The notes under the pieces: generated by a model
Databases searched by the model: none
What the model saw: the letters and a program-made list of their open reading frames with translations, nothing else
What the model was told of the DNA's origin: nothing
Shown here: positions 13,505-52,303 of the stretch, piece after piece
Layout: every line of letters starts with the position of its first letter
Numbering within the stretch: the first letter of the stretch is position 1
IMG/VR virus record: IMGVR_UViG_3300037722_000745
Coordinates: 1-64,000 of that record
Direction: 5' to 3' (one strand)
DNA: 64,000 bases
Source of the DNA: a virus
Taxonomy: Duplodnaviria; Caudoviricetes
Position numbers and translations under genes: made by a program

Positions 13505-14303
13505 TCACGGTATCGAACCAACACTCAGTCTCGCCTCGCTTTTCTCTTGCCGCTTACGTTGAGCCTTCGACATCTTAGCACGAGTCTCTGCACTCAACTT
13601 ACGCCCTAACCCTCTACCTTTGTTGGCAGCAGATATCTTGTCCTTGACTTCTTGACTTCTCGATTTACCAGTAATTGCTTGTGTGGCTTTTTTGGTTTGC
13701 CCTTTTCGGTATAGAGGGTTCCACCCACTAGCAATTTTTTTCTGCCAAGCCTCCTTGATAGCGGCGTTCCTCCTAGCTATGACTTGAGGTGATAGCTTAG
13801 GCCCAGGTTTGCCTCTTTTAGTGTCTGCCATTTTTCGGTAACTGGCCTCAGTTAGTACAGGACCTCTTCCCCTTTTGGCCGCAGACATGTTAGCTCTAGC
13901 TTCAGCCGTGTGAACCCTACCCTTATTGGCTTTAGATAGCTTGGCCTTTGTCGTAGAGGATTTTGGGTGGCCAGGAGATGCGCCCTCACCTCCATCAGTC
14001 GTATTGCACAGATTGCACCCTTGATCTCTGTGCCAAGCTATTTGCTTCTTCTCGGCCTCTTCCCAATCACCCACCCGACCCTGTCTCTAGTATTTTGAAA
14101 TCAGGCCGCAGGTCTTGTTGCAGCAAGGAACGAAGCTAACAAACAAGATGCGTGTTGGTCTTGGCTCTTTTCGCGTAGTGCAGATGATTCCTAAGCCGTT
14201 TAGGTACAGTCTGACAGGTCTTACCCACATAACGGATATCATCCGGGAACCTAGGATCAACCAGAGCGTAAATCACCCAAATGTTGTCAGAGAATTTTTC
14301 CAT
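13505..14303 (-). pseudogene. GIY-YIG/NUMOD3 homing endonuclease, inactivated
   Basis: From ATG 14303: VIYALVDPRFPDDIRYVGKT; TAG at codon 56 (14136-14138); frameshift near 14075 into the NUMOD3-repeat frame (TRAKMSKAQR); AT-richer than the flanks. Confidence 0.85.
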
Positions 14304-16455
14304 CTTTGAGGTAGGTGTCTTCTAGACCCGGTATAAGATATTGGCTATTAAGGGTAGTGGGTTCGTGGCCCACTTTCGCAGCCGCCAATTCTACAGCGTC
14401 CTTGAATTCTTTCTTCAACTGTTCTGCCTTCTTGGCCTTATCCTTAGGTAAAGGACCGCCTTTAGTCCGTGTCTGTCTTAAGGAAGATCTAACTTCGTCA
14501 TTGGCGTGGTAGCCGCGAATGTCCTTAGCCGTTGCGCCGAAGGGTTCGAGATAGGCGTTGACCTTCTCGGCGGTAACACAACCGTCGTCCCACGACAGAA
14601 CGCACGTGTCATCGCCTTCGAGCGAATTGTAAGCTTCACGTAGCGCCTTGCGGATGCCGGCGTCAGTGACTCTCTTCTCGTGCTTAACACCGGACTTGCC
14701 CGTGTACCGGATGAGCGCCCCGTCGGACTTGAAACTCACGTGGCGGCGTTGCCAACCCGTTACACCGAAGTGCCCCTCACTCGCAGACTCGTCGTTGCCG
14801 ACCCGTTCGTACGTGTGGTCCATGAGGGCGACCGCCAAAGCCGTCAACTTCGTCTCCGGGTCGCTCGACTTCAGATCCCGCTTGACCTGGGCTCGCAGCT
14901 TCTTGAGCGCCTTTCCGAGCTTGGCGATGCGCTCGGCCTTCTTATTGTTGCGCAGGGCCACCTGGCGCTCACTATAGAGGTAGATGGTGTTGCCTTTATC
15001 AGACTCCCGCTTGGCTTTGTATCTGGCGACAACAGTCTTGGCGTCAATCATAGGCCACCATACAGAGCTAGAATTTCCTTGGCCCAAGCAACTTTGTCCT
15101 CGACTCTCTGGCCCCTCTCGCATCTGCATGTAGGGCCTCTCGCAATGCCTTCGCATCGGAGAAAACTCGAAACTGGCCACGACCTGAGCTGATAGTAGGC
15201 TGCGCCCCAGAGCGGCTTTCTGGATGGTGCGGTCAATCCCTCCCCGTTTGGCAATTCGAAGACCTGCGACACGGAGATTGGGCAGAATCATCTGCACCCA
15301 ATGACGGATCAGCGGGTCAACTGTTCGAGGCCCATACCCAATGAGCATCCCCAGAGCCTCGCAGAAGGCTTCCTCTGGGTTCTTGCCTGCATACCCGGTG
15401 ACGGGGTTCTGCGGAACCGCGAAGGTATCCCCGCGGGCGACAGCAGCCTCGAAGTCCTCCTTCTTGCGGATTTCCCGCACCTCGCCGTGCCCGAACCCGA
15501 GCAGTTCAAGCTGGATGGCCAACGTCGGGTCCACGTCCTTGAGCAATTCACCCATTTCGTGGATCCACGCACCGTCAGGCCACAAGCGCAACGCCTTGTC
15601 GATATCGATCGGTCCGTAATTACCACGAATCGCGGTATCCCAGAACGTGCGATCCTTCTGCCCTAAGTACACCTTGTAGATGTGGTGGCCCATCTCATGC
15701 GCGAGGATCTTCGCGAGCATCTCGGGGCGCTCCCCTGCCGTCAACGACACCTCGATGTACCGACGCTCGTACCGACCCCCTTCATCAAGTTTCCCAACTA
15801 CCTTGGCGTGGATAGGTAGCATCATCCTGAGCATCGGCGGAAACACCTTGCCCGCCCTCTTCCGAAAGATCCGTAGACCGGCTCGGAAGCGCTCCCAGCT
15901 CCCCGCGTACTCACCCTCGATGTCTCCAATTACACGAACCTGGAAACCCTCGACCTCTACCTGGTCAACGTTGGTGATCGGCACATCGTAGTGCTCACGC
16001 CCGATCTCCGACAGGAAGTCGTCCAAGACCTTCCACAGCTCGCGGGCGATCCGCTTGAGCTTGGCGTCCCACTTCTTACTCGCTCGCTGATACTGCTGGA
16101 AGGCCCCTTCCTCCGTGAAATTCTCGTTGTATTTGTGCGGACGGTCCAGCGGCATCTCGTTCAGTGCGAGGTAGAAGTCCCAGCCGGTCTTCCGAAGCTT
16201 CCGCTCGTGCCAGTCTCTGAGATGCTCCGAGATCGAGTCGTCATATTTGAGCTGTTGGTTGACGAATTCGTCGAAGTAGATGCGGTTGAAGCGGTTGCGA
16301 AAAACCTTGAACGCCTCCCGCAGCTCGCTCGCCTGCTTGTAGTCTCGGACCCGCGGGATGTTCTTCGAGAGTTGCAGGAAGTCCTTCCGAAGCTTCTGGA
16401 TGGCGTCTCGGTCGATGCGAATCGACCGGGCAAGGACGGCAGCGGCAGTGGTCAT
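14287..16455 (-). CDS. zincin metallopeptidase-like domain in frame with DNA topoisomerase IB (topo domain 14287-15051, possibly with its own start)
   Basis: LAHEMGHH and YAGKNPEEAFCEAL; topo IB motifs TYERVGN, YTGKSG, TAKDIRGYHA, VGHEPTTLNSQYL; probable start ATG 16455 overlaps the upstream stop. Confidence 0.88.
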   Translation of the reverse strand: MTTAAAVLARSIRIDRDAIQKLRKDFLQLSKNIPRVRDYKQASELREAFKVFRNRFNRIYFDEFVNQQLKYDDSISEHLRDWHERKLRKTGWDFYLALNEMPLDRPHKYNENFTEEGAFQQYQRASKKWDAKLKRIARELWKVLDDFLSEIGREHYDVPITNVDQVEVEGFQVRVIGDIEGEYAGSWERFRAGLRIFRKRAGKVFPPMLRMMLPIHAKVVGKLDEGGRYERRYIEVSLTAGERPEMLAKILAHEMGHHIYKVYLGQKDRTFWDTAIRGNYGPIDIDKALRLWPDGAWIHEMGELLKDVDPTLAIQLELLGFGHGEVREIRKKEDFEAAVARGDTFAVPQNPVTGYAGKNPEEAFCEALGMLIGYGPRTVDPLIRHWVQMILPNLRVAGLRIAKRGGIDRTIQKAALGRSLLSAQVVASFEFSPMRRHCERPYMQMREGPESRGQSCLGQGNSSSVWWPMIDAKTVVARYKAKRESDKGNTIYLYSERQVALRNNKKAERIAKLGKALKKLRAQVKRDLKSSDPETKLTALAVALMDHTYERVGNDESASEGHFGVTGWQRRHVSFKSDGALIRYTGKSGVKHEKRVTDAGIRKALREAYNSLEGDDTCVLSWDDGCVTAEKVNAYLEPFGATAKDIRGYHANDEVRSSLRQTRTKGGPLPKDKAKKAEQLKKEFKDAVELAAAKVGHEPTTLNSQYLIPGLEDTYLKDGKIL

Positions 16456-17840
16456 GTGACGAGCCTCCAGCGGATCTGTACCTGGTCTGGCATGGGCTTG
16501 CCCAGAACGAAAAAGGCGAACGTCTCGGCGAAGTCTTCCGACACGTTCGTTTTGGCGTAAGCGCTCACCGTCTCCACAGAGGCGTTGTTGTCCGGGCTCA
16601 CATATCGCTGCTTCGGCCGAACGAAGTTCTTCTCGACCCAACCTTCACCACGTTCATGGGCGGCGACGAGGTCTTTCTGACGTTGGTTTCCAAACACGTA
16701 GCTAACCCAAGCGAGGAAGGGGGCCTCTAAAGAGGGATCCGACAAGAATCCTACCGCCCTGCGCGGCGAGAACTGAGCCTTCACGAGCGCCTGGAACATG
16801 TCCTGGCGCCCCTTAAGGTCGATACCCTTGCCACTGTAGGCGTCCTCGTAGGCATCCCGCTGGGCGGCGCTGAGCATTTTGTTCCACCACCGGTGGCCCA
16901 GCTCGTGGACCAACGTGTGGAGATCGTCGAAACGCTTTCGGGACTCGACGTTTAGCTTCAAGAGGTCGGCCGACTCGACGTACTTACCTGCAAAGCCCTT
17001 GCCGCTCTTGGCCCCCACCAGCTCAACCTTGCCGTACAGGGCCTTACCGAACCCCTTGGACTTGAGCCGGTCGGCCGCGGTGTCCAGGACCGCAAGGCTT
17101 TCAGCGTACTCGCTGGAACGGTAACCGTACTTGTTGACGATCTGGAAGGGCCCGTGCCGGAACTCCTTCTCGACCTCCGTGTACTCCTGAAGGCGGTTCT
17201 GAACCCGACGCAGGGAGGCCAGAGTCTCGGCGATGGAGTCTAGCGACAAGTTGATCCACGCCCGGGTCTCCCCATCCTCCTGATTGACGTAGCGCGACTC
17301 GAACGGGTACTGGAGCCGGCGAAGCCAGCTCAAGACGTTCTTCATCTTCCGTTGCTCGTCCTGGCGCTCGAACCGAACTCCCTCGAACATCGTCGCCAGG
17401 GGCTCCAGCATCTCCCCTAACCGGACAAAGAGGCGACGGGCTGTCGGGATGTCTCCTTCCTCGATAGCGCGCTCGATGGCCGGCCGGGCCTCGGTGAAGT
17501 CGCGAATATAGTCCGCCACGGGGCGGACCTCTGTTCCTGCGAACCGCATCACGACCCGCTGCGACTCTGAGGCGAGCTTGTCCAGGGCCTTAGTCTCAGG
17601 CACCGCTGCGGCCGGCAGCTTCCGAATCGTGTAGAGCCCCATGATCCGGTTGCTCTTGCGCCCCTTTGGGACGGGCTCGATCTCGATGTAGGGGATCCCG
17701 CTGGAGTCTAGGAACATGCGGACGATTTTGCCGCGCTTGTTCTTGAACTTTCCATACAGGATGTACTCGCCCGGTTTGAAGTAGGCAATCAGGTGGCGGG
17801 TGGCTACGCGGGCGGCCGGCTGGCGGAGTTCCTCGAACAT
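16452..17840 (-). CDS. modular protein with SH3/KOW-like N-domain and zincin (HELGH) domain
   Basis: LVHELGHRWW, YAKTNVSEDFAETF; VATRH and VVMRF motif copies. Confidence 0.78.
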   Translation of the reverse strand: MFEELRQPAARVATRHLIAYFKPGEYILYGKFKNKRGKIVRMFLDSSGIPYIEIEPVPKGRKSNRIMGLYTIRKLPAAAVPETKALDKLASESQRVVMRFAGTEVRPVADYIRDFTEARPAIERAIEEGDIPTARRLFVRLGEMLEPLATMFEGVRFERQDEQRKMKNVLSWLRRLQYPFESRYVNQEDGETRAWINLSLDSIAETLASLRRVQNRLQEYTEVEKEFRHGPFQIVNKYGYRSSEYAESLAVLDTAADRLKSKGFGKALYGKVELVGAKSGKGFAGKYVESADLLKLNVESRKRFDDLHTLVHELGHRWWNKMLSAAQRDAYEDAYSGKGIDLKGRQDMFQALVKAQFSPRRAVGFLSDPSLEAPFLAWVSYVFGNQRQKDLVAAHERGEGWVEKNFVRPKQRYVSPDNNASVETVSAYAKTNVSEDFAETFAFFVLGKPMPDQVQIRWRLVT

Positions 17841-17855
17841 GCCACCTAAAGTGGC

Positions 17856-18194
17856 CTACGCATGAATTATCCCCGATGTGTAGACGTAATCGCCGCGCTG
17901 AGCAGCGGAGGCCATGACAACCGCATCCACGACGCTGACCTTGCTGAGGCCAACAAGGGCCTCCCCCGCGATCCGGGCAAGACGCTCACACAGTGGCTCG
18001 ATGATGATCGCGCTCAGGATCGGGTTGATGCGGGATGGCTTGCCGCGGAACCACTCGACCAGAACCGGCGAGGGAACGGTCACGACCAGATCATCTTGCT
18101 CGGCCGCCGCAAGCACTGCCATCATTCGCCGTTCTTGTCGCTCAAGCGCGATGAGCGCACCCGTGTCGAGCGTCAGTCCGCAGCTGGCGCCCAT
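17856..18194 (-). pseudogene. PIN-domain (VapC-like) toxin, C-terminally truncated
   Basis: LTLDTGALIALER, VLVEW, VVDAVVMASA, then YTSGIIHA* where the TSD acidic residue and last strands are expected. Confidence 0.72.
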
Positions 18195-19776: not shown

Positions 19777-20292
19777 TCACGGATCATACTCGTAGACAAA
19801 AACCAGCAGATCTTCAAGTGTACGCTGAATGATTGGCTCGATCACACTCCAATCCCCCTGGGCCAATCCGGTTCCAATTTTCGGCATATGAATGCTCGCC
19901 CCCTTGTCGCCCACCCCACTCCTAACCTCATGCAGACACTTCTCCAAAGCGTCGTAGCGGATTGGTGGACGGGTGTTCGGCTCCGACCCCTGATGCCGCC
20001 CCCGGTTGGCCTTCCCGTACCCTTCCTGTGCGATCATGTTCACAACTGACAGCGGCGGTTCCCCCTGCACCGGGACGATCTGAATCTCCCCTAGCTTGAA
20101 ATCGCCGGCAAGTAGGGTGCGGCCCTCTCGATACCATTTTCGGTACTCCCGCTCCGGCTCCGGCCACCGCTTCGAAAGGGCTAAGACAAAGCCCCTACCC
20201 CACCCGCCACAGTTGTTGCACACATGCGCGATGAAACGGGGCCCGCCCGTATCGATAGGCTTGGTAGCGTCCCCTTTGCGGTAGTAGATCAT
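19777..20292 (-). CDS. macro-domain (ADP-ribose processing) protein
   Basis: YRKGDAT, IAHVCNNCGGWGRGFVLAL, VVNMIAQ, IRYDAL, HMPKIGTGLAQGDW. Confidence 0.92.
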   Translation of the reverse strand: MIYYRKGDATKPIDTGGPRFIAHVCNNCGGWGRGFVLALSKRWPEPEREYRKWYREGRTLLAGDFKLGEIQIVPVQGEPPLSVVNMIAQEGYGKANRGRHQGSEPNTRPPIRYDALEKCLHEVRSGVGDKGASIHMPKIGTGLAQGDWSVIEPIIQRTLEDLLVFVYEYDP

Positions 20293-20314
20293 CTTGTTGA
20301 ATCTCGTAAGTCAG

Positions 20315-20963: not shown

Positions 20964-20984
20964 TCAGCGGGGCTACACCAACCT

Positions 20985-25408: not shown

Positions 25409-25705
25409 CTAAGGGTTGGGAAAAGTGGATTCTGATTGGAGCCAGTCGACCCGAAAAACCAGGGTGCTCTCGTGCTGTTCTGGGTTAGCACAAACCACCC
25501 TCATACGAGCGTATAGATGGGGAGCCCTACGGCGTAGGGCATGGTTGCTTGGGGCTCCTTCGGTAGGCTGCCCGCAGCGTTCGCACTTCCATGCTTTCAC
25601 ATGTGCGATCAGCTCATCCACACCGCACGTAATGATGGAGCGATCTACTTCAGCGTGCGTGAGATCTTCCGAATCCTCCACCAGTGCTGTATCTAGGTCA
25701 TCCAC
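25409..25705 (-). CDS. Zn-ribbon hypothetical protein
   Basis: GTG 25705 overlaps the upstream stop; CERCG...C..H. Confidence 0.55.
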   Translation of the reverse strand: MDDLDTALVEDSEDLTHAEVDRSIITCGVDELIAHVKAWKCERCGQPTEGAPSNHALRRRAPHLYARMRVVCANPEQHESTLVFRVDWLQSESTFPNP

Positions 25706-26522
25706 GGGTGACTGGCAAACGGGATGGGGTTGTGTTCCGTTTTTTGGGGGACAAGGTCTTATCCCCCACATAACAGTACGCACACCCATAGTTGCACGAT
25801 TCGTTGACTGTGAAGGGATCGATCGCAACAACACAGCCACAGTCCATTACGTGGCTGCTCCCATCGAAATCCGTGGGAAACACGCAAGCACCCGTTCGAA
25901 ACAACGCTCCGGAATGGTGGATGAAGCTCTGATCATCCGCACACAGGATCGTTTGTAGCCCGAACACCTTTGCTTCCTCAGATAGGGCGTTCAATAGGTC
26001 AAAACGCTCTGACACCCCTCGGGTCTCAGGTAGCCCATCGTTGTTTTGGAGGTAAGAGACGAAGACATGCCTGAGCCCAGCTATCGAAGCGTAGGCAAGC
26101 AGTCGCTGGAAACGGCTGTACAATTCGTGTTCCGGAAGCTGGGGAATAGGACTGAACCGCCAGTAGGTGTGCTCGTACGCTCGAGACGTCTCAATGAGTA
26201 GCCTGCCAGCCTCGTCCAACGAAGGGGCCCCTTTCTCAACTTCCCCCCAACCCGTGATCGTCATCTGCACGACCGTACGGTAAGGATCTAGCAGCTTTTG
26301 ATCCAGAAGGAGATTCGTGGGGTTCTTCGTCCAAAAGATCAACCCAAGCGTGTCGGCTGGAGATAAGGACCAGACGCTTGGAGACGCAGTGCGAGGATCA
26401 ATTGCCACCATTTGACGTAGTTCCAGACAGGACTTAAACCACGACCACTTCGACACTGGGAGATCGGTCCAGCGGGAAAGGCTGTAAGGCACACGGTCTA
26501 CAACGCCACTGCGAAGGGACAT
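25698..26522 (-). CDS. DUF1848-family radical-SAM-like protein
   Basis: SLSRWTDLP, LIFWTKNP, QMTITG, WRFSPI, C-terminal CGC...SCNYGCAYCY. Confidence 0.85.
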   Translation of the reverse strand: MSLRSGVVDRVPYSLSRWTDLPVSKWSWFKSCLELRQMVAIDPRTASPSVWSLSPADTLGLIFWTKNPTNLLLDQKLLDPYRTVVQMTITGWGEVEKGAPSLDEAGRLLIETSRAYEHTYWRFSPIPQLPEHELYSRFQRLLAYASIAGLRHVFVSYLQNNDGLPETRGVSERFDLLNALSEEAKVFGLQTILCADDQSFIHHSGALFRTGACVFPTDFDGSSHVMDCGCVVAIDPFTVNESCNYGCAYCYVGDKTLSPKKRNTTPSRLPVTRG

Positions 26523-26578: not shown

Positions 26579-27118
26579 TCAAGTCTTTCGCGTCACCGGA
26601 CGGTAGCCAGCCCGAGACGGCTCGACCCGGAAGCCCAATTTCTTACCGAGGGCCGCTAACGCCGCAAGGGCCGCTCGAGCAGAGGTTCTAGGGTTCCCGC
26701 CCTCATCAACCGGGTGCTCAAGGTCAACACGGCTTTCCTGACGCTCTCCAGCGCTCTCCTGGTGGAAGGCCAGCGGTCCGGATGTCTGGTGGCCGATTAC
26801 GCGAAGCGGCGCCTCGTAGGTACCCCCATCGTCTGCCACAACCTTGATCGTCGTATTGTTGATGTCTTGAATCGTGTCCCGATTGAACGGCTTGCTCTTG
26901 CTCTTTGGAACGAACACGACACTCATCCGAGACACCCCATAACCGTAGCCGGCCTGGTGGTACCGCCCCACTACCCTTTCAGCGGAGGTTTTGAAACGGT
27001 CCTTGTTCTTCTCGTGTTCCTCTCGCCATTTCTCAGCGTCTTCAGGACTCATGTCCTTCGTGGGGTCGGCAGGTTTACCCTCCTCAAACCGCGACAGGAC
27101 TTCCGTATTTGTCATCAT
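26579..27118 (-). CDS. hypothetical protein carrying VLSRF and VVGRY motifs
   Basis: MTNTEVLSRFEEG...KTSAERVVGRY. Confidence 0.7.
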   Translation of the reverse strand: MMTNTEVLSRFEEGKPADPTKDMSPEDAEKWREEHEKNKDRFKTSAERVVGRYHQAGYGYGVSRMSVVFVPKSKSKPFNRDTIQDINNTTIKVVADDGGTYEAPLRVIGHQTSGPLAFHQESAGERQESRVDLEHPVDEGGNPRTSARAALAALAALGKKLGFRVEPSRAGYRPVTRKT

Positions 27119-27125: not shown

Positions 27126-27844
27126 TCAAGTCCACTGCGAGAAGTGGGTGCTGTAGCTAATCTTGTTCTTCTTCAACCAATCAGAGAATTGGCCCCAAGA
27201 TACGTTCTTGAGAGCCTTCGGATCGCCCGACAGCATCTTGTACATCTTCCGACCCGCAGCAGGAGAGGATGCTTCGTAAAGCGTGTAGTGAGGGTCGTGA
27301 TTCTGCAGATCCGAGTTCGGGCTGTACGCCTTAAAGTTGGTCCACTCGACCTTCACCGTGAAGTCCTTGCCTTCGACGCTGAACGGGTCTATGCCCTCTG
27401 GTTCGACCTGCAGGTAGAAGACTTGCGCTTCCCGCCATTTGGAACTATCGATGATCCAGGGCCTCTTTACGTCAAGCTCCTCGGTCACCGCTTTGGCCGC
27501 CTCCTGCACAGCGTCACCGATCTTCTTCTTGATCTTGTCGTAGTCATCCGACTTGCTCAGGCTAGCCTTGGCCAGGATGTTCGGTACGAGGAAGCGACCC
27601 CAAGCACGTTCCTGGCTGCCGCGCTCGCTGAGATTCTCGTCAGCATTCCACCGGGGCAGGATTGGTCGGGCTACTTGAGTTCGCAAAGTCGCAACTTTCG
27701 CTTGCCCTTTTGGGGCAGCTCCTCCAGCTTCCAGCCGTGCCGCCACCAGGTCAAACGCGCATCACGACCGATGAACTTCCCCTCCCCAACCGCCGCCATA
27801 CGGCGTTGGTAGCGGGCGACCACTCGAAGCACTGAACTGTCCAT
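27126..27844 (-). CDS. VVARY-motif protein split by a -1 frameshift
   Basis: 57-aa ORF 27671-27844 (MDSSVLRVVARYQRR...PQKGKRK) overlaps the -1 frame ORF that runs to 27126. Confidence 0.65.
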
Positions 27845-27867: not shown

Positions 27868-29121
27868 CTAAGCCGTGCCTGCCGCGGGTGAGCGACCGAT
27901 CAGTGCGGCCCCTGGGTTATGCACAGCTTCAGCGGTGATCCGAATGGAGGCTATATCGCACTGGTCCGGGACCTCGAACGAATAGGACTTGAGCACCGCC
28001 TTCATAATGGCTCGCAACGCCCTAGCTCCCGTAGACCGTTTCTTCGCCAACCTTGCGATTTCGCGAAGGGCCTCGGGGTCAAATTGTAGGTCCACCCCGT
28101 CCAAGGAAAAGAGCCCTCGAAATTGCTTGCAAAGGGCATTCTTGGGCTCGATCAGAACTCGTACCAGCTCATCCTCGGTAAGCTCATAGATTGAGGTGAT
28201 GACGGGCAGCCGGCCGACGATTTCCGGGATCATGCCGAACTCCTCGATATCGTCCGTCGTCACATGCCGATAGAGAGCTGTTTTGTCGTACTTTTCCCGG
28301 CGGCTCGAGCCAAATCCTATCCCCGCTGACTTGTTGAGCCGGTCAGCAATGACTTCCTCAATCCCTGCAAACGAGCCCGCCGCGATGAACAGGATGTTCT
28401 TGGTGTCCACCGTGTCGCAGCGCGTGAGCCCCGAAACGGATCGGACCCCCATCCCCCGCGGGACGGCCACCTTCGAGCCCTCCAGGAGCTTCAGGAGGGC
28501 CTGCTGGACGCCTTCCCCCGTCACGTCCCGGTACCCTGAGACGCCCCGACCCGATTTCCGTCCGAGCTTGTCGAACTCGTCAAGGACCACGATCCCCCAC
28601 TCAGCCTGCTCGATACTCTGGTTGGCATCCGCCAGGAGCCCCTGAAGCACGGACTCCACATCGTCACCCACGTAGCCGGATTGAGTGAGTCTCGTGCAAT
28701 CGGCAACGTAGAAAGGCACACCCAACGTTCTAGCCACACCTCGCGCAATGTGCGTCTTACCGCACCCTGATGGTCCCAACATGAGGATGTTGGACTTCTC
28801 CACCTCGATCTCTTCACCATCGACCTGGACAATCCCGTTCGTTGCCCGTCGTCGGTAATGCTCGTAGACCGCGATTGCAACCTCGCGCTTGGCTTCGTCC
28901 TGCGCGATGACCGTCTCGCTCAAAGCCTCGAAGATCTCCCGAGGTCTTTTTAGGGTAAGGACGTCAGAGTTCTCTGCCTTGCCGGCCTCTCGGGCGAGCA
29001 CTTGGGAGGCTCCGTCCACACAGTTGTTGCAAATGTGCGTGCCGTCCTTGGCCCCAATCAGATGCTGTACCTCATTTCTAGGCCGACCGCAAAAGTTACA
29101 GCGCTTTAACTCTTTCGGCAT
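27868..29121 (-). CDS. clpX: ATP-dependent Clp protease ATP-binding subunit ClpX
   Basis: CNFC/CNNC Zn domain, GPSGCGKT, TQSGYVGDDVE, LDEFDK, GEGVQQALLK, IGF loop, PEIVGRLP, GARALR. Confidence 0.96.
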   Translation of the reverse strand: MPKELKRCNFCGRPRNEVQHLIGAKDGTHICNNCVDGASQVLAREAGKAENSDVLTLKRPREIFEALSETVIAQDEAKREVAIAVYEHYRRRATNGIVQVDGEEIEVEKSNILMLGPSGCGKTHIARGVARTLGVPFYVADCTRLTQSGYVGDDVESVLQGLLADANQSIEQAEWGIVVLDEFDKLGRKSGRGVSGYRDVTGEGVQQALLKLLEGSKVAVPRGMGVRSVSGLTRCDTVDTKNILFIAAGSFAGIEEVIADRLNKSAGIGFGSSRREKYDKTALYRHVTTDDIEEFGMIPEIVGRLPVITSIYELTEDELVRVLIEPKNALCKQFRGLFSLDGVDLQFDPEALREIARLAKKRSTGARALRAIMKAVLKSYSFEVPDQCDIASIRITAEAVHNPGAALIGRSPAAGTA

Positions 29122-29194: not shown

Positions 29195-30415
29195 CTACAC
29201 CGACAGGCCCTCCCGCGTCAGCGGACTCATAAACCGCCGGATCACTCGCGCAGCCGCATCCTTCTTGCGCTTCTTGGGTTTGGGGTTCTTGCGCTTGCCC
29301 TGAAGCCAACCCTCATTTTTGTTTGTGATCTTGAGCTTTAGCGGCTTGACCTTTGAGGCGGCGGTCTTCTTACCCTTACCCCCTTCACTGATGATCGTTC
29401 CCGTGAGGTCGGAGGCGCCCATGATTAAAAACTCCGCTTCGTCGAACGAATACGGGTAGGTCTCGGATCCAATCTCCGGCCGAACGAGCGAGCTTGCAAA
29501 GATGCGCTCGACAGGGATCTTGTACTCGACGACACGGCCAAAACGCTTAGCGATGTCCGGGTTCGCCGTGAATGACGACAGCTCGCGGGACTCTACGTTC
29601 ACAGGTGTCCCCACAGATGGTGGTACGTCGCCAACCCCCTGGCCCTGAAACCCACGGTAGAGAGTCAGCTCTTTGATGCCTTGGCTCCTGAAATACGCCT
29701 GTTGGAAGTCGTATAGCTTCTTTACGTACGTCTTCAATTTAGGGTTGCTCGCCGCCTTTTGTCGCGCTTTTGTGAGCGCCCCACCGGTCGCTCCGTCAAC
29801 CTCTTTGTCTTCCGGGGCAATGTGCCCGCTAACACCCAAGGACGACACAAGGCCCTGCATTTCCGAGCTGGAGTGATCCCAGTTCCCGTAGTTGTCGTAC
29901 TGGTAACTACCTGCCGAGGTCGTCCATTGACGAAAGAAACGTTCGTGCAACTTACTCTCGGACTTGTTCAAGACCTTCTTCTGGAAGTGGGACCCGATCT
30001 CGTGGCCACCCACATAGATAGCCTTCTCCGCCTCCGATAGCTTAGGGAATAACTTCCCGACAAGGTCCTCGTCAGAACCATAGGTGTTGAATTTGTTCTT
30101 CTTGGGCTCGAAGGCGTCGAGATCTTCTTTGGCCTCTTCAGTGATCCGGTCGAATGTCTTACCGTGCTGGGCAATGACCGCCTCAAGGTCCTCATTCGTC
30201 GACTTCAGAACACCCTTGAAGGTTGACTTTTCGCTGCTCGGCCTCCCGCTGTAGTCTCCTCCGCCTTCCTCAGAGAACTCTTGCTTCGGCTTGCGGACCC
30301 AATGTTTCTTAAGATCAGCCTTCGGGTGCTCCTGTAAATACGTTCGGAGCGCTTCCTCGGTGGAAAACTCCTTGGCGTACCGATCAACAACACGCCGAGC
30401 AACGAGGGAAGACAT
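29195..30415 (-). CDS. ADP-ribosyltransferase (R-S-E clade), probably virion-associated
   Basis: LTLYRG, LSSFT, FDEAEFL; N-terminal ARRVVDRY; probable start ATG 30415. Confidence 0.78.
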   Translation of the reverse strand: MSSLVARRVVDRYAKEFSTEEALRTYLQEHPKADLKKHWVRKPKQEFSEEGGGDYSGRPSSEKSTFKGVLKSTNEDLEAVIAQHGKTFDRITEEAKEDLDAFEPKKNKFNTYGSDEDLVGKLFPKLSEAEKAIYVGGHEIGSHFQKKVLNKSESKLHERFFRQWTTSAGSYQYDNYGNWDHSSSEMQGLVSSLGVSGHIAPEDKEVDGATGGALTKARQKAASNPKLKTYVKKLYDFQQAYFRSQGIKELTLYRGFQGQGVGDVPPSVGTPVNVESRELSSFTANPDIAKRFGRVVEYKIPVERIFASSLVRPEIGSETYPYSFDEAEFLIMGASDLTGTIISEGGKGKKTAASKVKPLKLKITNKNEGWLQGKRKNPKPKKRKKDAAARVIRRFMSPLTREGLSV

Positions 30416-44717: not shown

Positions 44718-45593
44718 TTACCAGGGCCCCTTACGCTTCGGATGGTATTTGGAGCCCGATGACCCGGGCGGCAGCAGATCGTCGGAGTTTGATTGGGATG
44801 GCCTCGAAGTTGATTGGGATGACTTAGACTGGTCAAACAAATTGCTTTTCGGTGGGTCGACTCCCATCCCAATTGCATTGTCGTTATCCTCGACTTCCTC
44901 CTGTACCTCTCTGCGCAATCGGTTGACTCTCTCTCTAGCTTCCTCAACCCCCCCACCCAGATCGACTATGTCATAGTTCTCTTGGATGTAGCCCCAAGCA
45001 CCAGGAGTGTAGGCTTCATGCCCTGGGCCAAAGAACTCAACATCCTCCGCAATCCAGGTGGGTTTGCCTGCGCCCATTCGAATCGCCATCGTTTCATGAA
45101 GCACATCCCCAGCAGCTCTGTTCCGGTGGAGAACCCCGAGCCGTATGATGACTAAGCTCGGCGGTAGAAGAAGATCGTTGAGGTTGTTGTAAGTGGCGAT
45201 CGTCTCCCGGTTTTCCTTGGATCTCTTCGTGTAGGCAAAGTCCCCAAGCCATACCCGCACCAGCTCCTGGTCGTCCGTGGTCCGAAACGTGAAACCCTTG
45301 GAGTATTCCCACTTCACCGAAAGGACCCAACGCAAGTGCCGGCAAACCATCTCCCAGGTCCCCCTCAGGAACAGGTTCTCTTGGGTGGCATCCCGGTCTT
45401 CAGTGTAGAGAGGACTCCGAACGTGCTTCACGCCTGAAATGACGGGACCCAGAAATGCATGAAGCTGCTTGCGTTTGAGACAAATGCACGGAATCGGAAT
45501 CAGGTCCTCGCCGTCGGTCTCATAGCGCCAGTGTTTTCCTTTGCACTGTGGGCATATGGTCTCCTCAGGCACGATTGGTAGATACACCGGCAT
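44718..45593 (-). CDS. possible DnaC/DnaI-like helicase loader
   Basis: CPQC...CIC Zn motif then degenerate P-loop fold (LLLPPSLVIIRLG, KPTWI); next to DnaB. Confidence 0.5.
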   Translation of the reverse strand: MPVYLPIVPEETICPQCKGKHWRYETDGEDLIPIPCICLKRKQLHAFLGPVISGVKHVRSPLYTEDRDATQENLFLRGTWEMVCRHLRWVLSVKWEYSKGFTFRTTDDQELVRVWLGDFAYTKRSKENRETIATYNNLNDLLLPPSLVIIRLGVLHRNRAAGDVLHETMAIRMGAGKPTWIAEDVEFFGPGHEAYTPGAWGYIQENYDIVDLGGGVEEARERVNRLRREVQEEVEDNDNAIGMGVDPPKSNLFDQSKSSQSTSRPSQSNSDDLLPPGSSGSKYHPKRKGPW

Positions 45594-48429
45594 CCGAGTC
45601 TCGCAGACTCTTCATCAGCTCGTAGGAGAAGCTACCCTCACTCTCGAAATTCAAAGCTCCGACCGCAGCTTCCCCAAGCACTTTGTCGATCAGGTCTTTC
45701 TTGCTTTGAAGGATTTGGAGTGTGTAGTGATCGATCGTCTTTTTTGCTCGACCCGGACGCTCCGCTACTAGGTGGATCGCTACGACGTGTTGGTGAGGAG
45801 AGCCGATACGAATCGGTCGCCCGAGAAGCTGGACGTAGTTCCCCCACGACCAAGGAGCATTGTAGAAGATCATCGCCGCAGCGGCTTGTAGGTTGATCGA
45901 CTCCGAACCCGCATCTGAGATGAAGATGACCCGCACATCGGATTCAGGATCCTGAAACTCCAGCATGGCCCTCTGCCGAGCTGGATTGGTCTTGGTGTCG
46001 ACTACTTTGCCTGTGATCGCCGTGCTCTCCACCCCAGCTTTCTTGCACAACTCCTGAAGACGGGGGATGAGGGACGCGAATCGTGTGTACACAATCACCT
46101 TCTCCCCATCGAACTCCCCGGTGATCAGATCCAACATGGCTTCCTCTTTCGAGGACAAGGATTTCACGTTGTCCGCCTCACCCAACAACTCGAGCCCGAT
46201 AGTGTCCCCCTCTTCGAAGCGAAGTAAGCTCAGAGAATCAACCGTTTGTTGGCAGTAGATGAGCGCAGTCAGCGTTTTGGTCTCTTCGTAGTCCCGCACC
46301 TCTCCGTCCCCCAAAGCGAGCACGCCTGACAGTGCCTCCTCGTACTTCGTGTTCTCCGCTTTAGATAACGTGACCCGAACGTCGCGCGTGAGAAGCTTGG
46401 GAAGCTCGTCCGAAATCTCATGCTTCGGCCGTCCGAGGAAGAACGGATCAATGCGCATCCGGAACAGCTCCAGGTTCTTGTACCCGATGATGATCGGAAT
46501 TTTCCTTCGACCTCCTACAGGTTGCCACTTGACCTCGCAGAACAGGTCGAGGAACTTCGTCTTCGTCGTGAAGACTCTTGGGTAGATGCACTTGTAGATG
46601 GCGTAACCCTCGATCAAGTTGTTCTTGAGCAAGGTAGCTGTGAGCCCGTAACAACGATTTGCATGGCTGGCTAGCTCTGAACACACCTGCCACGTCTTTG
46701 TCGACGGGTTCTTGAACGCGGTGCAGTTAGAAACTAGGGCCCCTCCAGCTATGTAGTTATGGTTACCCTCGACCTCCAAGTCATAGACGTAGTCAAGATG
46801 CTCCCGCACCTTGGGGGCACGCTTCCATGGAGTTTTAGCCAGCACCACATCCCGTACCAAACCAACCGTAGGGTTACGATCCAAACTCTCCAACAGGAGT
46901 GGTTCTTTACCTGGAAACTTGTGCTCCACCCCAGGTAAAGAGCCAGGCAACAGCTCTAGGAACCTGTCGGCCGCCTCTGCGTCCAAGTACAACACCCAAT
47001 GACGACCTGACTTGCTAATCTGCGCCTGAACCCCCCACCGCCACCGAAGCCAACCCGCTAACAATTCGTTCTCGCCGTAGGTGAATCCTTGCGTGTTTAA
47101 AATAATACGACGGCGAACCACCCCTTCTTTGGTTGTGTGCGTCTGCAACGATCCGTCATCCCCATACCAGATCGCAAGACCTAACGGGCCAACGCGGCTC
47201 AACCATTCTACAGAGGGGTGCTTACGGCCTTCTCGATGCGTAGTCAGTGTTGAACACAAATGTGGGTTGGCTCGTAGCCTGAACCGGCAAATGGGAGAAC
47301 CCCCGTACCCGCTAGGGGTTGTGCTAATCTCAGAGGTGCCAAGCGAGGCTAACAAGCCCTTCTTGAAATCCAGGTATCTTCGCTGTGCTTGCCCATGTAC
47401 AAAAGACACCCCCCACAAACTACGCTTGGGGTGGGACACACTAGCATCCCCAAGCAAACCCCCCAGAATAATCTGGAGTTGATCATCAGAAGGTATTGTG
47501 TCCGTAAAGGTAGCTGTCTCGGAGCCCTTCCTAAGACGCCCTGCTTCCGTTGGTTTGCCGTCGCATCTGTAGAATTTATGATTTCTGGTTACGATCACGC
47601 TGTTGGCATACCGAAACTCAAGTTTCACCAACCCCTTCGTGCGCAATGGGTTACGGACCCAACGGATTACCCGGCGTGGTTCCATGGAGTTGGTCGCCCA
47701 GTTCCATGACAACACGGATACAGGTTCTCGCCCGCATACGATCTTGCCTATCAACCGCTCAGAGCCATCAGCTAAGCGTATTGGAGTGTGGTACTCGAAA
47801 CATTCGTCGTACACGACAGTGAGGCCGTCGATCTTCTGCATGAGGCCGTTCAACAACCCGGGGCTCATCGGCTTCTTCATGTCCGGCTGCCCGTTCTTCT
47901 TGAGCGGACGGGTGGCTCCCTGATTCCAGTCGCGGACCAAGGGAGCATACCCCATGACCATCACCGCTTTCGGGTCGTCCGGGCCCGTTGGATGATTCAA
48001 AAAAGCGTCGTAGGTTTCCCGACGCTCATCCGGACCTCCGTTTGCCAAGTAGACTTGAATACCTGTGGCGAACTTGTCGATCTCTGCCGCCCACTGACGC
48101 AGGGCGCTCTTGGGGGTGATCACGACCACTTTGTTCGTCGGTTCTTTCTGCCAGGTGTAGCAAAAAGCTGCAATGCAGGTGGGCGTCTTGCCCGTGCCAG
48201 TGGCGTCCCCGAGCACCATCCTCTTCATCGACATCAGATGGAAGACCGCCTGGACTTGATAGTACCGGAGCTTGAACGGCTGGACTTTGCCGTCGATGCC
48301 CACGATCTCAGATCGCAGCATCGAGATGGGCTTGAGCGCTACCGTCTTGCTCTCCCGGACCTTTTTGAGAAGCTCGTAGACCTTCCTGTGCTTCTCTACC
48401 GGATCTTCTTTAGGTGTTTTCGCGGCCAT
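45565..48429 (-). CDS. SNF2-family helicase with intein
   Basis: LGDATGTGKT, YDE|C, LTATLLKN, VIVYTRF, GSESINLQ, WSWGNYVQLLGR. Confidence 0.93.
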   Translation of the reverse strand: MAAKTPKEDPVEKHRKVYELLKKVRESKTVALKPISMLRSEIVGIDGKVQPFKLRYYQVQAVFHLMSMKRMVLGDATGTGKTPTCIAAFCYTWQKEPTNKVVVITPKSALRQWAAEIDKFATGIQVYLANGGPDERRETYDAFLNHPTGPDDPKAVMVMGYAPLVRDWNQGATRPLKKNGQPDMKKPMSPGLLNGLMQKIDGLTVVYDECFEYHTPIRLADGSERLIGKIVCGREPVSVLSWNWATNSMEPRRVIRWVRNPLRTKGLVKLEFRYANSVIVTRNHKFYRCDGKPTEAGRLRKGSETATFTDTIPSDDQLQIILGGLLGDASVSHPKRSLWGVSFVHGQAQRRYLDFKKGLLASLGTSEISTTPSGYGGSPICRFRLRANPHLCSTLTTHREGRKHPSVEWLSRVGPLGLAIWYGDDGSLQTHTTKEGVVRRRIILNTQGFTYGENELLAGWLRWRWGVQAQISKSGRHWVLYLDAEAADRFLELLPGSLPGVEHKFPGKEPLLLESLDRNPTVGLVRDVVLAKTPWKRAPKVREHLDYVYDLEVEGNHNYIAGGALVSNCTAFKNPSTKTWQVCSELASHANRCYGLTATLLKNNLIEGYAIYKCIYPRVFTTKTKFLDLFCEVKWQPVGGRRKIPIIIGYKNLELFRMRIDPFFLGRPKHEISDELPKLLTRDVRVTLSKAENTKYEEALSGVLALGDGEVRDYEETKTLTALIYCQQTVDSLSLLRFEEGDTIGLELLGEADNVKSLSSKEEAMLDLITGEFDGEKVIVYTRFASLIPRLQELCKKAGVESTAITGKVVDTKTNPARQRAMLEFQDPESDVRVIFISDAGSESINLQAAAAMIFYNAPWSWGNYVQLLGRPIRIGSPHQHVVAIHLVAERPGRAKKTIDHYTLQILQSKKDLIDKVLGEAAVGALNFESEGSFSYELMKSLRDSDAGVSTNRA
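46726..47802 (-). mobile_element. intein with LAGLIDADG homing endonuclease (359 aa)
   Basis: Starts CFEYHTPI after YDE; ends VYDLEVEGNHNYIAGGALVSN before Cys+1; internal GGLLGDAS and IWYGDDG. Confidence 0.93.
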
Positions 48430-48517
48430 CTTGCGTGGCCAGCTACACCAACGGGAAGCTCACACTGAGCTTCCCTACGTCCCACGGCGGATGCGGCCGT
48501 TCGGTGTAGCCCCCTGC

Positions 48518-49819
48518 ATGTGGGACTACATCGTCGAAGCTCTTCAACCTCAGCTGAAAAACGAATTCTTTTCGGGTGGCGCCCTTTTGGTGGTGCTCAC
48601 AGCTACCCTGGCCGCTTTACGGAACGTGCCGCGTCGCCTGTGGGCCCTGCTCCAACGTCGATTCGTCACTACGGTCGATATCTCTGATCATGACCCTGCT
48701 TTCTTCTGGGTCCAAAAATGGCTCGGAGATCAGCCTTACACGAAGACCAAAGCCCGCTTGCTAACCGCATCCACTCGAACGGGTCCGGTCAAGGGCGACA
48801 TTGTCTCAAGTCCTTCCGTCGTCGAGCAGTCTGAGCGCAAGCGGCAACTCACCGAGATCGTGTTCAGCCCAGCGCCTGGGGCCCACCTCATCCGTTTCAA
48901 AGGACACTTCATCCTGTTGACCCGTATCCGCCGGGAAGGCGAGAACATTACTGGCGAGGTTGCCTACCATGAGTCGATCGAGTTTCGAGCCCTGTCTCGA
49001 AAGGTCATTCGGGATCTGATCTACGAAGCTCGTGAATACGCCTTTCCGCCTGAGGATGATCGGATTGCGATCATGAAGCCTAACTACCACGGCTGGAGGA
49101 TCTCCCAGCGGCGTCCTCCAAGACCCTTCGACTCAGTGATCCTCTCCGGCGGACAACTCGCGGAGATCAAGGATGACCTCATCTGGTTTTTCGGTGCCAA
49201 GGAGTGGTATTTCGACCACGGGATCCCCTACCAACGGGGCTTCCTCTTCCACAGTCCACCAGGCAACGGCAAAACGTCGGTGGTCGTCGCACTCGCCAGC
49301 CATTTCGATCGAGACATCTACATCATCTCGCTCACAGCGGTTACCGACAACCAGCTTACGAACATCATGGCAGAGCTACCCGAACATTCTATCGTCCTCA
49401 TTGAAGACGTGGATTGCGTCTATCAAGAGCGCAAGAGAGTCGAGGGGCATGAGCAACTAACGTTCGCTGGCTTCCTTAACTCAATTGACGGAGTCAGCGC
49501 TCCCACAGGTCGAGTGCTTGTGATGACCACCAATCACCCCGAACTCCTTGACTCGGCGTTGATTCGACCCGGTCGTATTGATCGGAAATTCGAATTCCGC
49601 AACGCTGATGGGGACATGGCTCAACGGCTGTTCGAACGGTTCTTCCCCCAACACAAAAAACTCGCCACGGAGTTCGGAAAAATCGTGGCTAGCGCCCCAC
49701 GCGAGCTTCCCATGGCCGATTTGCAGGAGCACCTGATCGCGCACCGAAAAGACCCAGAGGCGGCTGTGACCGCTCTGCGTCCAAGTGTGCCCATTGTGGA
49801 TCTGAGACAGTCGGTGTAG
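48518..49819 (+). CDS. BCS1-like AAA+ ATPase
   Basis: N-terminal TM and BCS1_N-like region, RPFDSVIL, YQRGFLFHSPPGNGKTS, IEDVD, FLNSIDG, TTNHPELLDSALIRPGRID; GGTGTA 9 nt before ATG 48518. Confidence 0.88.
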   Translation: MWDYIVEALQPQLKNEFFSGGALLVVLTATLAALRNVPRRLWALLQRRFVTTVDISDHDPAFFWVQKWLGDQPYTKTKARLLTASTRTGPVKGDIVSSPSVVEQSERKRQLTEIVFSPAPGAHLIRFKGHFILLTRIRREGENITGEVAYHESIEFRALSRKVIRDLIYEAREYAFPPEDDRIAIMKPNYHGWRISQRRPPRPFDSVILSGGQLAEIKDDLIWFFGAKEWYFDHGIPYQRGFLFHSPPGNGKTSVVVALASHFDRDIYIISLTAVTDNQLTNIMAELPEHSIVLIEDVDCVYQERKRVEGHEQLTFAGFLNSIDGVSAPTGRVLVMTTNHPELLDSALIRPGRIDRKFEFRNADGDMAQRLFERFFPQHKKLATEFGKIVASAPRELPMADLQEHLIAHRKDPEAAVTALRPSVPIVDLRQSV

Positions 49820-49925
49820 TGTCGCGCTGTTTTTTGATTTGTCGGACATCCGCGATTCGACGCTGTAACCCTGCGGGCAGCAACCGGAAGCCCACCTCCC
49901 TTGAGTGGGACATAGGAGGAACGAA

Positions 49926-50963
49926 ATGACGAATCAATTGCTGGTCCGGTTGGCCCGCGCTTACCAAACTACAAACACGCCTATCCGCCTATCTTCAGAC
50001 GTCTACACGAATGAGTACCTCGACTGCCGGCAAGCCCTAAGCGACCCTCGGACCCTCCAACTTGCCTGTAGGGCCCTCCTGGAGGCGCTGAGAGACGAGG
50101 GTGTAGACATCGAAGCCCTTGGGGGCATGACGATGGGGGCCGACCCCCTGGCGGTCGGAGCTGCCCTTCTCGACCTCGAACGAGAGGCCCCCAACACTTG
50201 TTGTTGGTTCAGCGTGCGGAAGCTTCCCAAGGAACACGGGACGGGACGCAAGATCGAAGGGTTTGTTCGTCCTGGCTCTCGAGTTGCGGTTCTTGACGAC
50301 GTGATCACCACCGGAAGCTCCTTGACGAGTTCGATTCTCAACTGCCGTGACGCCGGCATGGAGGTTGTCCTAGCTCTGGGGCTTGTCAACCGCGGGGCGC
50401 TCGCTGAGGTCGCCGGGGTCAAAGTCGTGTCGATCCTGGACTTCTCCGACGTGGCGTTCGTGGGGCAGGCTCGCGAATTTGCCTTCAAGGCCCATGATGG
50501 ACAAATGTACGGATCGACTCCGTACAGCGAGCACCTGGAAGAGACGGTCCAGGTGCTCGTGACTACGCTGCCTGATTGCCCGCCCGAATTGCTCGCCGCC
50601 GCTTACCTACACGACGTGTTAGAAGACACCTTCTTGACGACAGACGATCTGCATGAAGCCACCTCGGGGCGTGTCGTCGGCCTTGTGGACGCCTGTACGG
50701 ATGGAAAGGGCCAGAACCGCCGAGAACGAAAAGAGAGGCCCTTCGAGCTGATTCCGAAACGGCCTGACTCCATCCTGGTGAAGCTCGCCGATCGCATCGC
50801 CAATGCCGAACGCTGCCGGGCCACCGGAGACAGTCGACTTAACATGTACCGAAAGGAGCATTCGGTATTCATCGCCCGACTCAACCATGCCCCAACCTCT
50901 CCTGGATTGAGTCCCAAGCCCCTGTGGGAGCGGTTGACAAATGCTCTGTCCAACTCAGGATAG
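49926..50963 (+). CDS. orotate phosphoribosyltransferase fused to RelA/SpoT-type HD hydrolase
   Basis: GMTMGADP, RKLPKEHGTGRKIEG, VLDDVITTGSS; then HDGQ..PYSEH, LHDVLEDT, KLADRIAN. Confidence 0.88.
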   Translation: MTNQLLVRLARAYQTTNTPIRLSSDVYTNEYLDCRQALSDPRTLQLACRALLEALRDEGVDIEALGGMTMGADPLAVGAALLDLEREAPNTCCWFSVRKLPKEHGTGRKIEGFVRPGSRVAVLDDVITTGSSLTSSILNCRDAGMEVVLALGLVNRGALAEVAGVKVVSILDFSDVAFVGQAREFAFKAHDGQMYGSTPYSEHLEETVQVLVTTLPDCPPELLAAAYLHDVLEDTFLTTDDLHEATSGRVVGLVDACTDGKGQNRRERKERPFELIPKRPDSILVKLADRIANAERCRATGDSRLNMYRKEHSVFIARLNHAPTSPGLSPKPLWERLTNALSNSG

Positions 50964-51193
50964 CGAAGCCTAAGCAGGCACTGAGTCCCGCTGCGGCGGG
51001 GCCTCGCTATGGTCGCCGCTGATCGTTCGCGAACGGTCGGACTGTGCGTATGACCTCGGACCTTCCCGACAGATCGCGGAGGCGCGCAAGGCGCCGGTAC
51101 CGAGAAAAGACAGGGCCCGCCTAGCCTCTTTCAACGCAGTTTCAAAGTCCTTCTTTACCTTGGAACCACCTCTCGACTATCCCAAACGGAAGC

Positions 51194-52303
51194 TCACCGG
51201 GCGTCGTTTAGGATCTCGACGAATTCAGGCGCCAGGTCCATCCCAAGCACGTAGTGGGCAAACGCCTCCGCGAAGTTCTCCCGCACATTCGTGGCTCCGT
51301 ACGGTGTGACTGCGAGAGGCTCGCGGATGACCTTGTCCGTCATCACGTCGGCGTCCTTCGAGCCCTTGGCCGTGGCATGAAGCTTCGACTCGTCGATCTT
51401 GCCCGCCAAGTAGTCCGCCATATCGCGCTTGATGTTGAGCGGCCCGTCCACGCTTCTCAACCACGTCTCTAGCTCGGGCGACATCTTCGGCAACGGATGA
51501 CCTAAAGCTCGGGTCTTTGCGAGATCAACCACCTCGTCTGCCACCTGATCGCGTAGCTTCGCATCGAAGTGGATGACCTCGTGCTCGCGCTTCGTCGATA
51601 GGCCCCAGAATTTGTTTCGAAGCTGAGATTCCAGGAATTTGTAGTCGAAGCGGTGCCCTAACTCGTGGATGAGGGTGTAGATGTCGTCGAATCGCTTACG
51701 AGCGTTCACACTTAAGTGGACCGTATCATCCGTGTGGACGTAGTGTGCGGCTGTCTTTCGAGACAAGCTCGTCGCCAGAAACACACGCCCATAGAGCACC
51801 TTCGGGAACTTCAGTCGGATCTTAGCCGCAGCGCTGTCCAGGGCGCTGAGCGAAGTATCCAACTGCTTTTTGGTGATGCCAGGCACGGGGATCACCAAAA
51901 ACGGCCCGTGCTGAATCTCGCGTTCCTTGTCCCCCGCGGCGGTAGCCAGTTCTAGAGTTCGGATCGCACGGCCCCAATCCTTCGCCTCACGCAGGGCCAT
52001 GTCCGACAGGATCTGGTTGGAGAGATCTTGGTGCTCGTAGTTCATCTTGAACACACGGATCGCCTTGCGTAAGGAGTTCAGAGAATTGCGCTTGGTCTTA
52101 CCAAGGGCCCAGAACCAGTCCGGGGGCGTGTTCCCGTCGGGTACGATCAACTCTACGACCCTCTCGCCAAACTCAATGAGGGGTTTGGGATCGCTCTTGG
52201 TCTCCAGCGCTTTTAGGGCTCGATCGTACTCGGGCTTGAGCTTGACGCCTGTGCGTGCCCAAAGATATCGCCCAACAACGTGAGCAGAGCGAGTCCGGAG
52301 CAT
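51194..52303 (-). CDS. zincin (HELGH) protein with N-terminal VVGRY motif
   Basis: LIHELGHRFD, YGATNVRENFAEAF. Confidence 0.78.
   Translation of the reverse strand: MLRTRSAHVVGRYLWARTGVKLKPEYDRALKALETKSDPKPLIEFGERVVELIVPDGNTPPDWFWALGKTKRNSLNSLRKAIRVFKMNYEHQDLSNQILSDMALREAKDWGRAIRTLELATAAGDKEREIQHGPFLVIPVPGITKKQLDTSLSALDSAAAKIRLKFPKVLYGRVFLATSLSRKTAAHYVHTDDTVHLSVNARKRFDDIYTLIHELGHRFDYKFLESQLRNKFWGLSTKREHEVIHFDAKLRDQVADEVVDLAKTRALGHPLPKMSPELETWLRSVDGPLNIKRDMADYLAGKIDESKLHATAKGSKDADVMTDKVIREPLAVTPYGATNVRENFAEAFAHYVLGMDLAPEFVEILNDAR

Follow-up and report, generated by a model that had tools for sequence, protein, structure and literature searches.

Why should a set of phage proteins with little else in common carry the same short peptide near their ends? 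The question is raised by the first 64 kb (the window) of a 323,174-bp IMG/VR virus contig (IMGVR_UViG_3300037722_000745; 56% G+C; completeness estimated by CheckV at 68%), which comes from an uncultured huge phage and whose window gave no match to deposited phages by megablast. An initial annotation of the window had picked out a motif, VVxR[YF], on about seven proteins, and read it either as a portable tag that loads injected enzymes into the head or as a mark for protease sites in modular polyproteins. We followed this peptide, called the tag below, through the 354 genes called on the whole contig and through three comparison genomes fetched nearly whole (G002, G003 and G005, which together with this contig, G000, are the four genomes referred to here). 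The tag is conserved, modular and genomically coupled to a phage gene for the unfoldase ClpX, which may be its reader.

The motif exceeds chance in a search of the whole-contig proteome. Measured against per-protein shuffles of the 354 genes, V[VLI]xR[YF] occurs 20 times where 6.7 +/- 2.6 copies are expected, and six copies fall within the first 20 residues of a protein (0.39 expected). With the preceding arginine included, RV[VI]xR[YF] is found nine times against an expectation of 0.28, and the observed residue order is the commonest among 72 permutations of the same residue sets. All of the peptides quoted at the outset are present where they had been placed, on the minus strand, and most of them are true copies. 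The exceptions are VLSRF (27100-27086), which is part of a separate SRFEEGKPADPT module, and VVASF, which is off consensus and sits in a read-through-like linker. VLARS, off consensus and without an aromatic residue, is doubtful as a tag copy. A full-text search of the open-access literature for the motif found no description of it.

A logo of 117 N-terminal copies (the four genomes supply 49 of them, zincin homologues the other 68) extends the motif to ten residues, L-A-x-R-V-[A/V]-x-R-[Y/F/W/H]-[L/Q], with the positions L(-4), A(-3), L(-2), R(-1), V(0), [A/V](1), x(2), R(3), [Y/F/W/H](4) and [L/Q](5). It combines an i/i+4 hydrophobic stripe with an i/i+4 arginine pair, as in a short amphipathic helix, and the tag is most likely such a helix, its two arginines sharing a face. 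In the AlphaFold structure predicted for one of the carriers it forms a helical N-terminal extension, at low confidence. Most copies lie 5-10 residues from the N-terminus. Others are C-terminal and stop 1-13 residues short of the stop codon, as in RVAARYLETS, RVASRFE and RVANRWLA. In G005 there are 18 N-terminal and 12 C-terminal copies (3.2 and 4.0 expected), with fewer in G002 and G003, and tagged proteins number 15-30 per genome. Because the copies differ by synonymous codons, the motif acts at the level of the peptide; a DNA or RNA signal was rejected on this ground and because copies also occur at C-termini. Relaxing position 2 to Ala brought in further carriers outside the window, with the peptides MELSAERVAARY, MGTLAKRVAARW, MSERSERVATRF, MPHATRVIERF, MVASVKERVVRRY and MLTVRVVARF. 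Examples of the carriers outside the window are:

163910-164287, 176093-176503, 196682-197305, 242548-243051, 305150-305683 and 308114-309268

The proteins that carry the tag include topoisomerase IB, an ADP-ribosyltransferase (ART), zincin-like proteins and several small proteins, families unrelated to each other. The carriers had been described as otherwise unrelated, which is true of these families, but three of those in the window (proteins A, B and F, below) are paralogous zincin-like proteins. The tag persists in orthologues of 30-60% identity from distant huge phages, including those of topoisomerase IB and ART, and in some orthologues it is duplicated in tandem. In agreement with the initial annotation, a tag was not seen on the window's polymerase, helicases, ClpX or nucleotide-metabolism enzymes. 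Judged by its sequence contexts, the tag is a portable, modular label that is part of no single fold, which agrees with the portability proposed at the outset. One could still hold that it has no function and arose by chance, or that the tagged N-termini descend from a single expanded family, since a zincin-like superfamily accounts for five carriers in this genome. The strong enrichment over shuffles, the unrelated folds, the presence at both termini and the conservation in orthologues across phages make this barely credible.

The strongest association of the tag was absent from the initial annotation: the phage clpX gene stands between two carriers, an ART gene and a split gene. The features of this neighborhood are:

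29195..30415, minus strand: ART, DRAT-like, directly upstream of clpX, tagged at both ends
30391-30377, minus strand: VVDRY of the ART N-terminal tag MSSLVARR-VVDRY (30377-30394 with the preceding R)
29245-29231, minus strand: VIRRF of the ART C-terminal tag AAAR-VIRRF (29231-29248 with the preceding R)
27868..29121, minus strand: phage ClpX, full length, candidate reader of the tag
27671..27844, minus strand: 5' piece of the split gene directly downstream of clpX, starting MDSSVLR-VVARY
27823-27809, minus strand: VVARY of the tag on this 5' piece (27809-27826 with the preceding R)
27126..27746, minus strand: 3' piece of the split gene, without a tag of its own (frame overlap region 27671-27746)

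A search of viral contigs for ClpX relatives came up empty with a single sequence but succeeded with alignments, and a ClpX alignment brought out 80 loci. In the huge-phage clade, for which ClpX identity has to reach 48%, the tag opens the next gene after clpX at 14 of 24 distinct loci, or at 16 of 26 when this genome and G005 are added. Trimmed of their tags, the 16 proteins fall into 11 families unrelated by BLAST. Run on all genes of 150 aa or more in the four genomes, this procedure yields a background of 4-7% tagged genes (P about 6e-13 for 16/26); a stricter family-level estimate, made before clustering, is 9/19 (P = 1.6e-6). The gene before clpX is often tagged as well, being the ART here, a zincin-like gene in G011 and G008, and a zincin-like gene with an internal tag in G001. 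The zincin family led to 18 related virus records, of which 14 encode ClpX, including all three complete genomes; the four records without it are three fragments (29-32% complete) and one that is 68% complete. Around ClpX genes that fall beyond the clade (identity no higher than 46%, mostly low GC), about 500 flanking genes contain no strict tag, so the tag is clade-specific and no general companion of phage ClpX.

The N-domain of the phage ClpX is a C4 zinc finger (residues 6-43), and the protein also has the Walker A/B motifs, the pore loop GYVG and, for docking ClpP, the loop IGFG, with Pfam matches to zf-C4_ClpX (1.5e-13) and AAA_2 (5e-23), and it matches solved ClpX structures with E = 4e-101 over residues 6-401. 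In an alignment of 11 phage ClpX proteins the zinc-binding domain (ZBD) and the GYVG and IGF-type loops are conserved, but the RKH loop is not. The phage ClpX thus carries the full set of motifs of an active unfoldase able to dock ClpP. ClpP is encoded in one of the three complete relatives and not on this contig; the ClpP-docking loop is kept nonetheless. The nearest deposited phage ClpX proteins, from Bacillus phage G, Atu_ph07, Phosso and Lak, are at most 45% identical.

The best-supported explanation, to which we give a probability of about one half, is that the tag would serve as a docking tag or degron for this ClpX. It would tether its carrier to the phage ClpX, probably at the zinc-binding N-domain, and ClpX would then unfold or remodel the carrier, with timed degradation where host ClpP takes part; alternatively, the small tagged proteins encoded behind clpX could act as adaptors in the manner of SspB. 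We infer the physical binding, its site and its outcome, be it timed turnover, adaptor function or remodeling. The proposal of ClpX tethering arises because the tag loosely resembles, in its core L-R-V-[V/A], the ClpX-binding (XB) tail of Escherichia coli SspB, RGGRPALRVVK (PMC8808172, PMC3983244). The XB peptide binds the dimeric ClpX ZBD from any place in a chain, turns fused GFP into a ClpXP substrate and is present in two copies per adaptor dimer (PMC12373786), and the ZBD has been described as a common docking site of adaptors and substrates (PMC7804408). The phage tag is likewise a short portable peptide, on what may be a flexible end, and a cognate ClpX with an intact ZBD is encoded beside the tagged genes.

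Several points weigh against a tag read by ClpX. The best-conserved tag positions, R+3, the aromatic residue at +4 and L-4, have no counterpart in XB, and among the 117 N-terminal copies Leu directly precedes the arginine in 30, with the arginine itself present in 77. Compared with XB, the phage tag is longer, mostly N-terminal and found on 15-30 proteins per genome instead of one adaptor; a helix is predicted for it both from its i/i+4 spacing and by AlphaFold, whereas XB reportedly binds as a beta strand in PDB 2DS8. The ClpX proteins form two subgroups that differ by a two-residue insertion in the strand corresponding to the E. coli XB site, yet their tag is identical, and the ZBD sequence showed no covariation signal with the tag consensus. 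Over the 15 kb on either side of clpX, tag density shows no rise (9/161 versus 69/1742, P = 0.21), so the clpX signal is one of strict adjacency. Head and packaging modules are also enriched in tagged genes. Finally, all compared genomes belong to one clade, and the co-occurrence of ClpX and tag is therefore not independent evidence. A single complex prediction, of two copies of the ClpX N-domain (residues 1-52) with zinc and ART residues 1-40, scored 0.02 and counts for neither side.

Known ClpX degrons offer a looser comparison. In the scheme of Flynn et al. from 2003 they reportedly comprise C-motifs of the ssrA and MuA types and N-motifs of the lambda O type, with five published patterns. 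Like the phage tag, these degrons are terminal peptides at either end of diverse proteins that address one AAA+ unfoldase. The phage tag, however, appears to fit none of the five patterns, and here the unfoldase is phage-encoded and its RKH loop is not conserved.

The two tagged neighbors of clpX merit description in their own right. The ART matches Pfam DRAT at 4e-6, above the cut-off, and its G003 orthologue begins MHDPASIRVARLF. After the tag, its residues 19-42 (30290-30360) form a conserved module, F-S-T-[PE]-E-A-L-K-x-Y-L-x-E-H-P-x-A-D-x-x-K-H, and at least five relatives have this module too, in genes that lie one to three positions away from clpX (including L042, L127, L129 and L135). 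On the other side, the gene behind clpX (the MDSSVLRVVARY gene) starts 23 nt after the clpX stop and is broken near 27700, where a frameshift of 1 nt comes right behind ..PQKGKRK. The intact homologue in G010 is a single 239-aa open reading frame (ORF) behind clpX that starts with two tandem tags, and our 3' piece is 47% identical over 166 residues to its residues 73-238 (E = 8e-48). The frameshift could be an assembly error, the mark of a pseudogene or a programmed shift.

Other features of these genomes touch ClpX or its gene. Stand-alone ClpX-type zinc-finger domains occur, in addition to full ClpX, at the C-termini of 201-aa and 121-aa ORFs (L035, G005 262060-262170; L050, G007 67611-67700), and could compete with ClpX for the same ligands. 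Inteins are carried by the ClpX proteins of G001 and G008 and by the SNF2 helicase of the window (45565-48429). The clpX region keeps conserved company, namely a macro-domain-like protein assigned from sequence alone, a DUF1848 protein and a DnaJ-domain protein (19777-20292, 25698-26522 and 52311-53462 in the window), and relatives have a carbon-nitrogen hydrolase just upstream of clpX.

The remaining carriers in the window lie away from clpX or farther downstream of it, and two of them contain internal copies of the tag:

14287..16455, minus strand: protein A, 722 aa, with a zincin-like domain (HEMGH), linker, tag and topoisomerase IB domain (about 14353-14952)
15033-15019, minus strand: VVARY of the tag MIDAKT-VVARY, internal in protein A
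16452..17840, minus strand: protein B, with a small tagged N-terminal domain, linker, another tag and a zincin-like domain (HELGH ... EDFAE)
17810-17793, minus strand: RVATRH of protein B tag 1, AAR-VATRH
17555-17541, minus strand: VVMRF of protein B tag 2, SQR-VVMRF (17541-17558 with the preceding R)
26579..27118, minus strand: 179-aa protein, with an N-terminal SRFEEGKPADPT...KDRFK module and then the true tag SAER-VVGRY
26974-26960, minus strand: VVGRY of that tag (26960-26977 with the preceding R)
51194..52303, minus strand: zincin-like paralogue F, with the N-terminal tag MLRTRSAH-VVGRY (VVGRY at 52279-52265)

The copies between domains in A and B are what had suggested a site at which a maturation protease cuts modular polyproteins. 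In alignments, however, they coincide exactly with the starts of orthologues that other phages encode as stand-alone proteins, and we therefore regard them as relics of gene fusion. In relatives the zincin and the topoisomerase IB of protein A (Pfam Topoisom_I, 3.5e-22, residues 502-701) are two separate genes, and the stand-alone topoisomerases begin with the tag (MSLLKVVAKY, ..SERVAARY and MTSIAARVAARY); protein A may be a recent fusion or have lost a stop codon. A Cys/Trp-rich stretch joins its halves (14953-15140, residues ~440-500) and resembles a translated former intergenic spacer. For protein B, the stand-alone orthologue G005_352924 begins MTSTMVYRVATRY and its alignment starts at residue 95 of B, while residues 11-72 of B match a tagged 86-aa protein of G002. 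Cleavage would in any case free nothing useful from most copies, which lie at most 10 residues from a terminus, the C-terminal ones 1-13 residues from the end. The prohead protease of this phage is of the T4 gp21 type, which cuts after Glu, and no conserved cleavage context of the Glu type follows the tag. We consider a protease site very improbable.

The N-terminal part of A together with B, F and two carriers outside the window make up a family of paralogous zincin-like proteins (HExxH...ENFAE). F finds B, the carrier at 308114-309268 and zincin-like proteins of G005 and G003 by BLAST (1e-14 to 1e-51). For the carrier at 308114-309268, of 384 aa, there are 164 homologues, a good many of which come from contigs 450-620 kb long. 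Most of them start M-D-P-L-A-x-R-V-A-x-R-[YFWH], several have two tandem copies (..RVAxRYLGVDPLAYxVARRF..), and in others the position is taken by another peptide, Y[SD]YDRR. Over 100 zincin homologues on contigs of huge phages retain the tag. The HExxH and ENFAE motifs do not vary among 32 homologues, Pfam matches to Peptidase_Mx/Mx1 are below the cut-off, and an AlphaFold model with a predicted local distance difference test (pLDDT) score of 91 has as its sole PDB matches, all weak, collagenases, anthrax lethal factor, LTA4 hydrolase and Wss1 (E = 0.09-0.5). We regard these carriers as putative metallopeptidases.

F lies directly downstream of a DnaJ-domain gene (52311-53462), and a J-like gene is found near clpX in G008. 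These neighbors would suit a tag that docks to some other partner or place, such as the phage J-domain chaperone system, a host protein or the membrane, as would the amphipathic helix pattern with its Arg and aromatic residues, since terminal basic amphipathic helices are typical of membrane targeting. The tag is, however, conserved across families and phages far more strictly than the usual membrane-targeting helices, and no alternative partner has a genomic association comparable to that of clpX. We judge such a partner to be rather unlikely.

A use in head assembly, the other half of the initial proposal, brings in genes outside the window:

159633-163910: prohead protease (L114), T4 gp21-like, with two inteins, matching phrog_18299
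167903-170980: portal
173463-175475: large terminase

The head module also holds a Q/E-rich scaffold-like protein (158332-159567) and a capsid-like protein (156706-157587), and at least one of the prohead protease inteins contains a LAGLIDADG endonuclease. A 37-residue repeated module, SRFEEGKPADPTKxMSPEDAxKW...KDKFK (SRFEEGKPADPT...KDKFK), is present once in the 179-aa window protein (26985-27097, residues 8-45), as a C-terminal pair in a head-module protein of 530 aa (152845-154437), three times in a G002 homologue and also in G005 proteins.

If the tag were a signal for loading the capsid or prohead, it would dock enzymes on the scaffold, core, portal or inner capsid for later injection. 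The cargo resembles injected arsenals, with an ART like T4 Alt, putative peptidases and a topoisomerase IB, and an amphipathic basic helix at either terminus is how such loading peptides look. Tagged genes make up 8 of the 79 in the head and packaging modules of the four genomes and 70 of the 1828 outside them (odds ratio 2.8, P = 0.013). A small tagged gene of 125 aa (163910-164287) lies directly upstream of the prohead protease, the position that genes 67 and 68 of the prohead core occupy in T4. Its positional counterpart in G005 starts with a different tag, MYDYDRR. A tagged topoisomerase IB follows the large terminase directly in G002 and G003, and a tagged 136-aa gene sits just upstream of terminase genes. 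This enrichment is nevertheless modest and comes from eight genes, the tag is missing from the capsid, scaffold and portal proteins, and a loading signal leaves unexplained the 11 unrelated tagged families directly behind clpX. We consider it possible but doubtful.

Such a signal would recall the capsid-targeting sequence of T4, the helices by which scaffold proteins bind the coat, or the cargo peptides of encapsulins. The capsid-targeting sequence of the T4 internal proteins and Alt is likewise an N-terminal peptide of about ten residues on unrelated proteins, an ADP-ribosyltransferase included, and some of our carriers likewise lie in the head module. T4-type capsid-targeting sequences are strictly N-terminal leaders that the prohead protease removes at an [LI]-x-E site. 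The phage tag, in contrast, has C-terminal, tandem and internal copies, is followed by no conserved Glu, is coupled to clpX and has no sequence similarity to them. The encapsulation peptides of microcompartments and the cargo peptides of encapsulins are also short amphipathic helices at either end of unrelated enzymes. Each is read by one shell protein, which in encapsulins has the HK97 fold of the phage capsid, but their sequences are unrelated to the tag. Overall, the tag resembles XB tethers by sequence, T4 capsid-targeting sequences by cargo and encapsulation peptides by shape and placement, and shows the full set of defining features of none.

The two lines of evidence need not point to different machines. 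Iyer et al. suggested that phage ClpX might translocate unfolded proteins or aid virion assembly (PMC7824862). ClpX could be a cargo motor that recognizes the tag, unfolds or threads a private set of enzymes and loads them into the prohead or hands them to head assembly, and not only an agent of destruction with host ClpP. We hold this to be improbable; if true, it would unite the clpX linkage with the head-module carriers and give the ClpX of huge phages a function.

A second terminal tag, Y[SD]YDR[RT], coexists with the RV-tag (loci L051-L090 in G005 and G003). Its carriers in G000 are:

79622-81301: N-terminus MTSERYSYDKR
129002-129931: C-terminus YSYDRTGL

G005 has eight copies of this tag against 0.3 expected, seven of them at the extreme N-terminus, and G003 has four. 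Some zincin orthologues have it in place of the RV-tag, as does the small gene upstream of the prohead protease, and the protein at 79622-81301 combines the two, with this tag N-terminal and the RV-tag C-terminal. On short contigs, the surroundings of two zincin homologues held no other YSYDRR carriers.

New in this analysis are the clade-wide statistical coupling of clpX and tag, the origin of the internal copies by fusion, the helical consensus and the second coexisting tag. Huge phages encode hundreds of proteins without known function, and the tag would group some of them by client status. If a ten-residue label defines 15-30 clients in each genome, it names the clients of a phage unfoldase or the cargo of the head, and, if this is true, the tag would be a transplantable label for controlling the fate of proteins.

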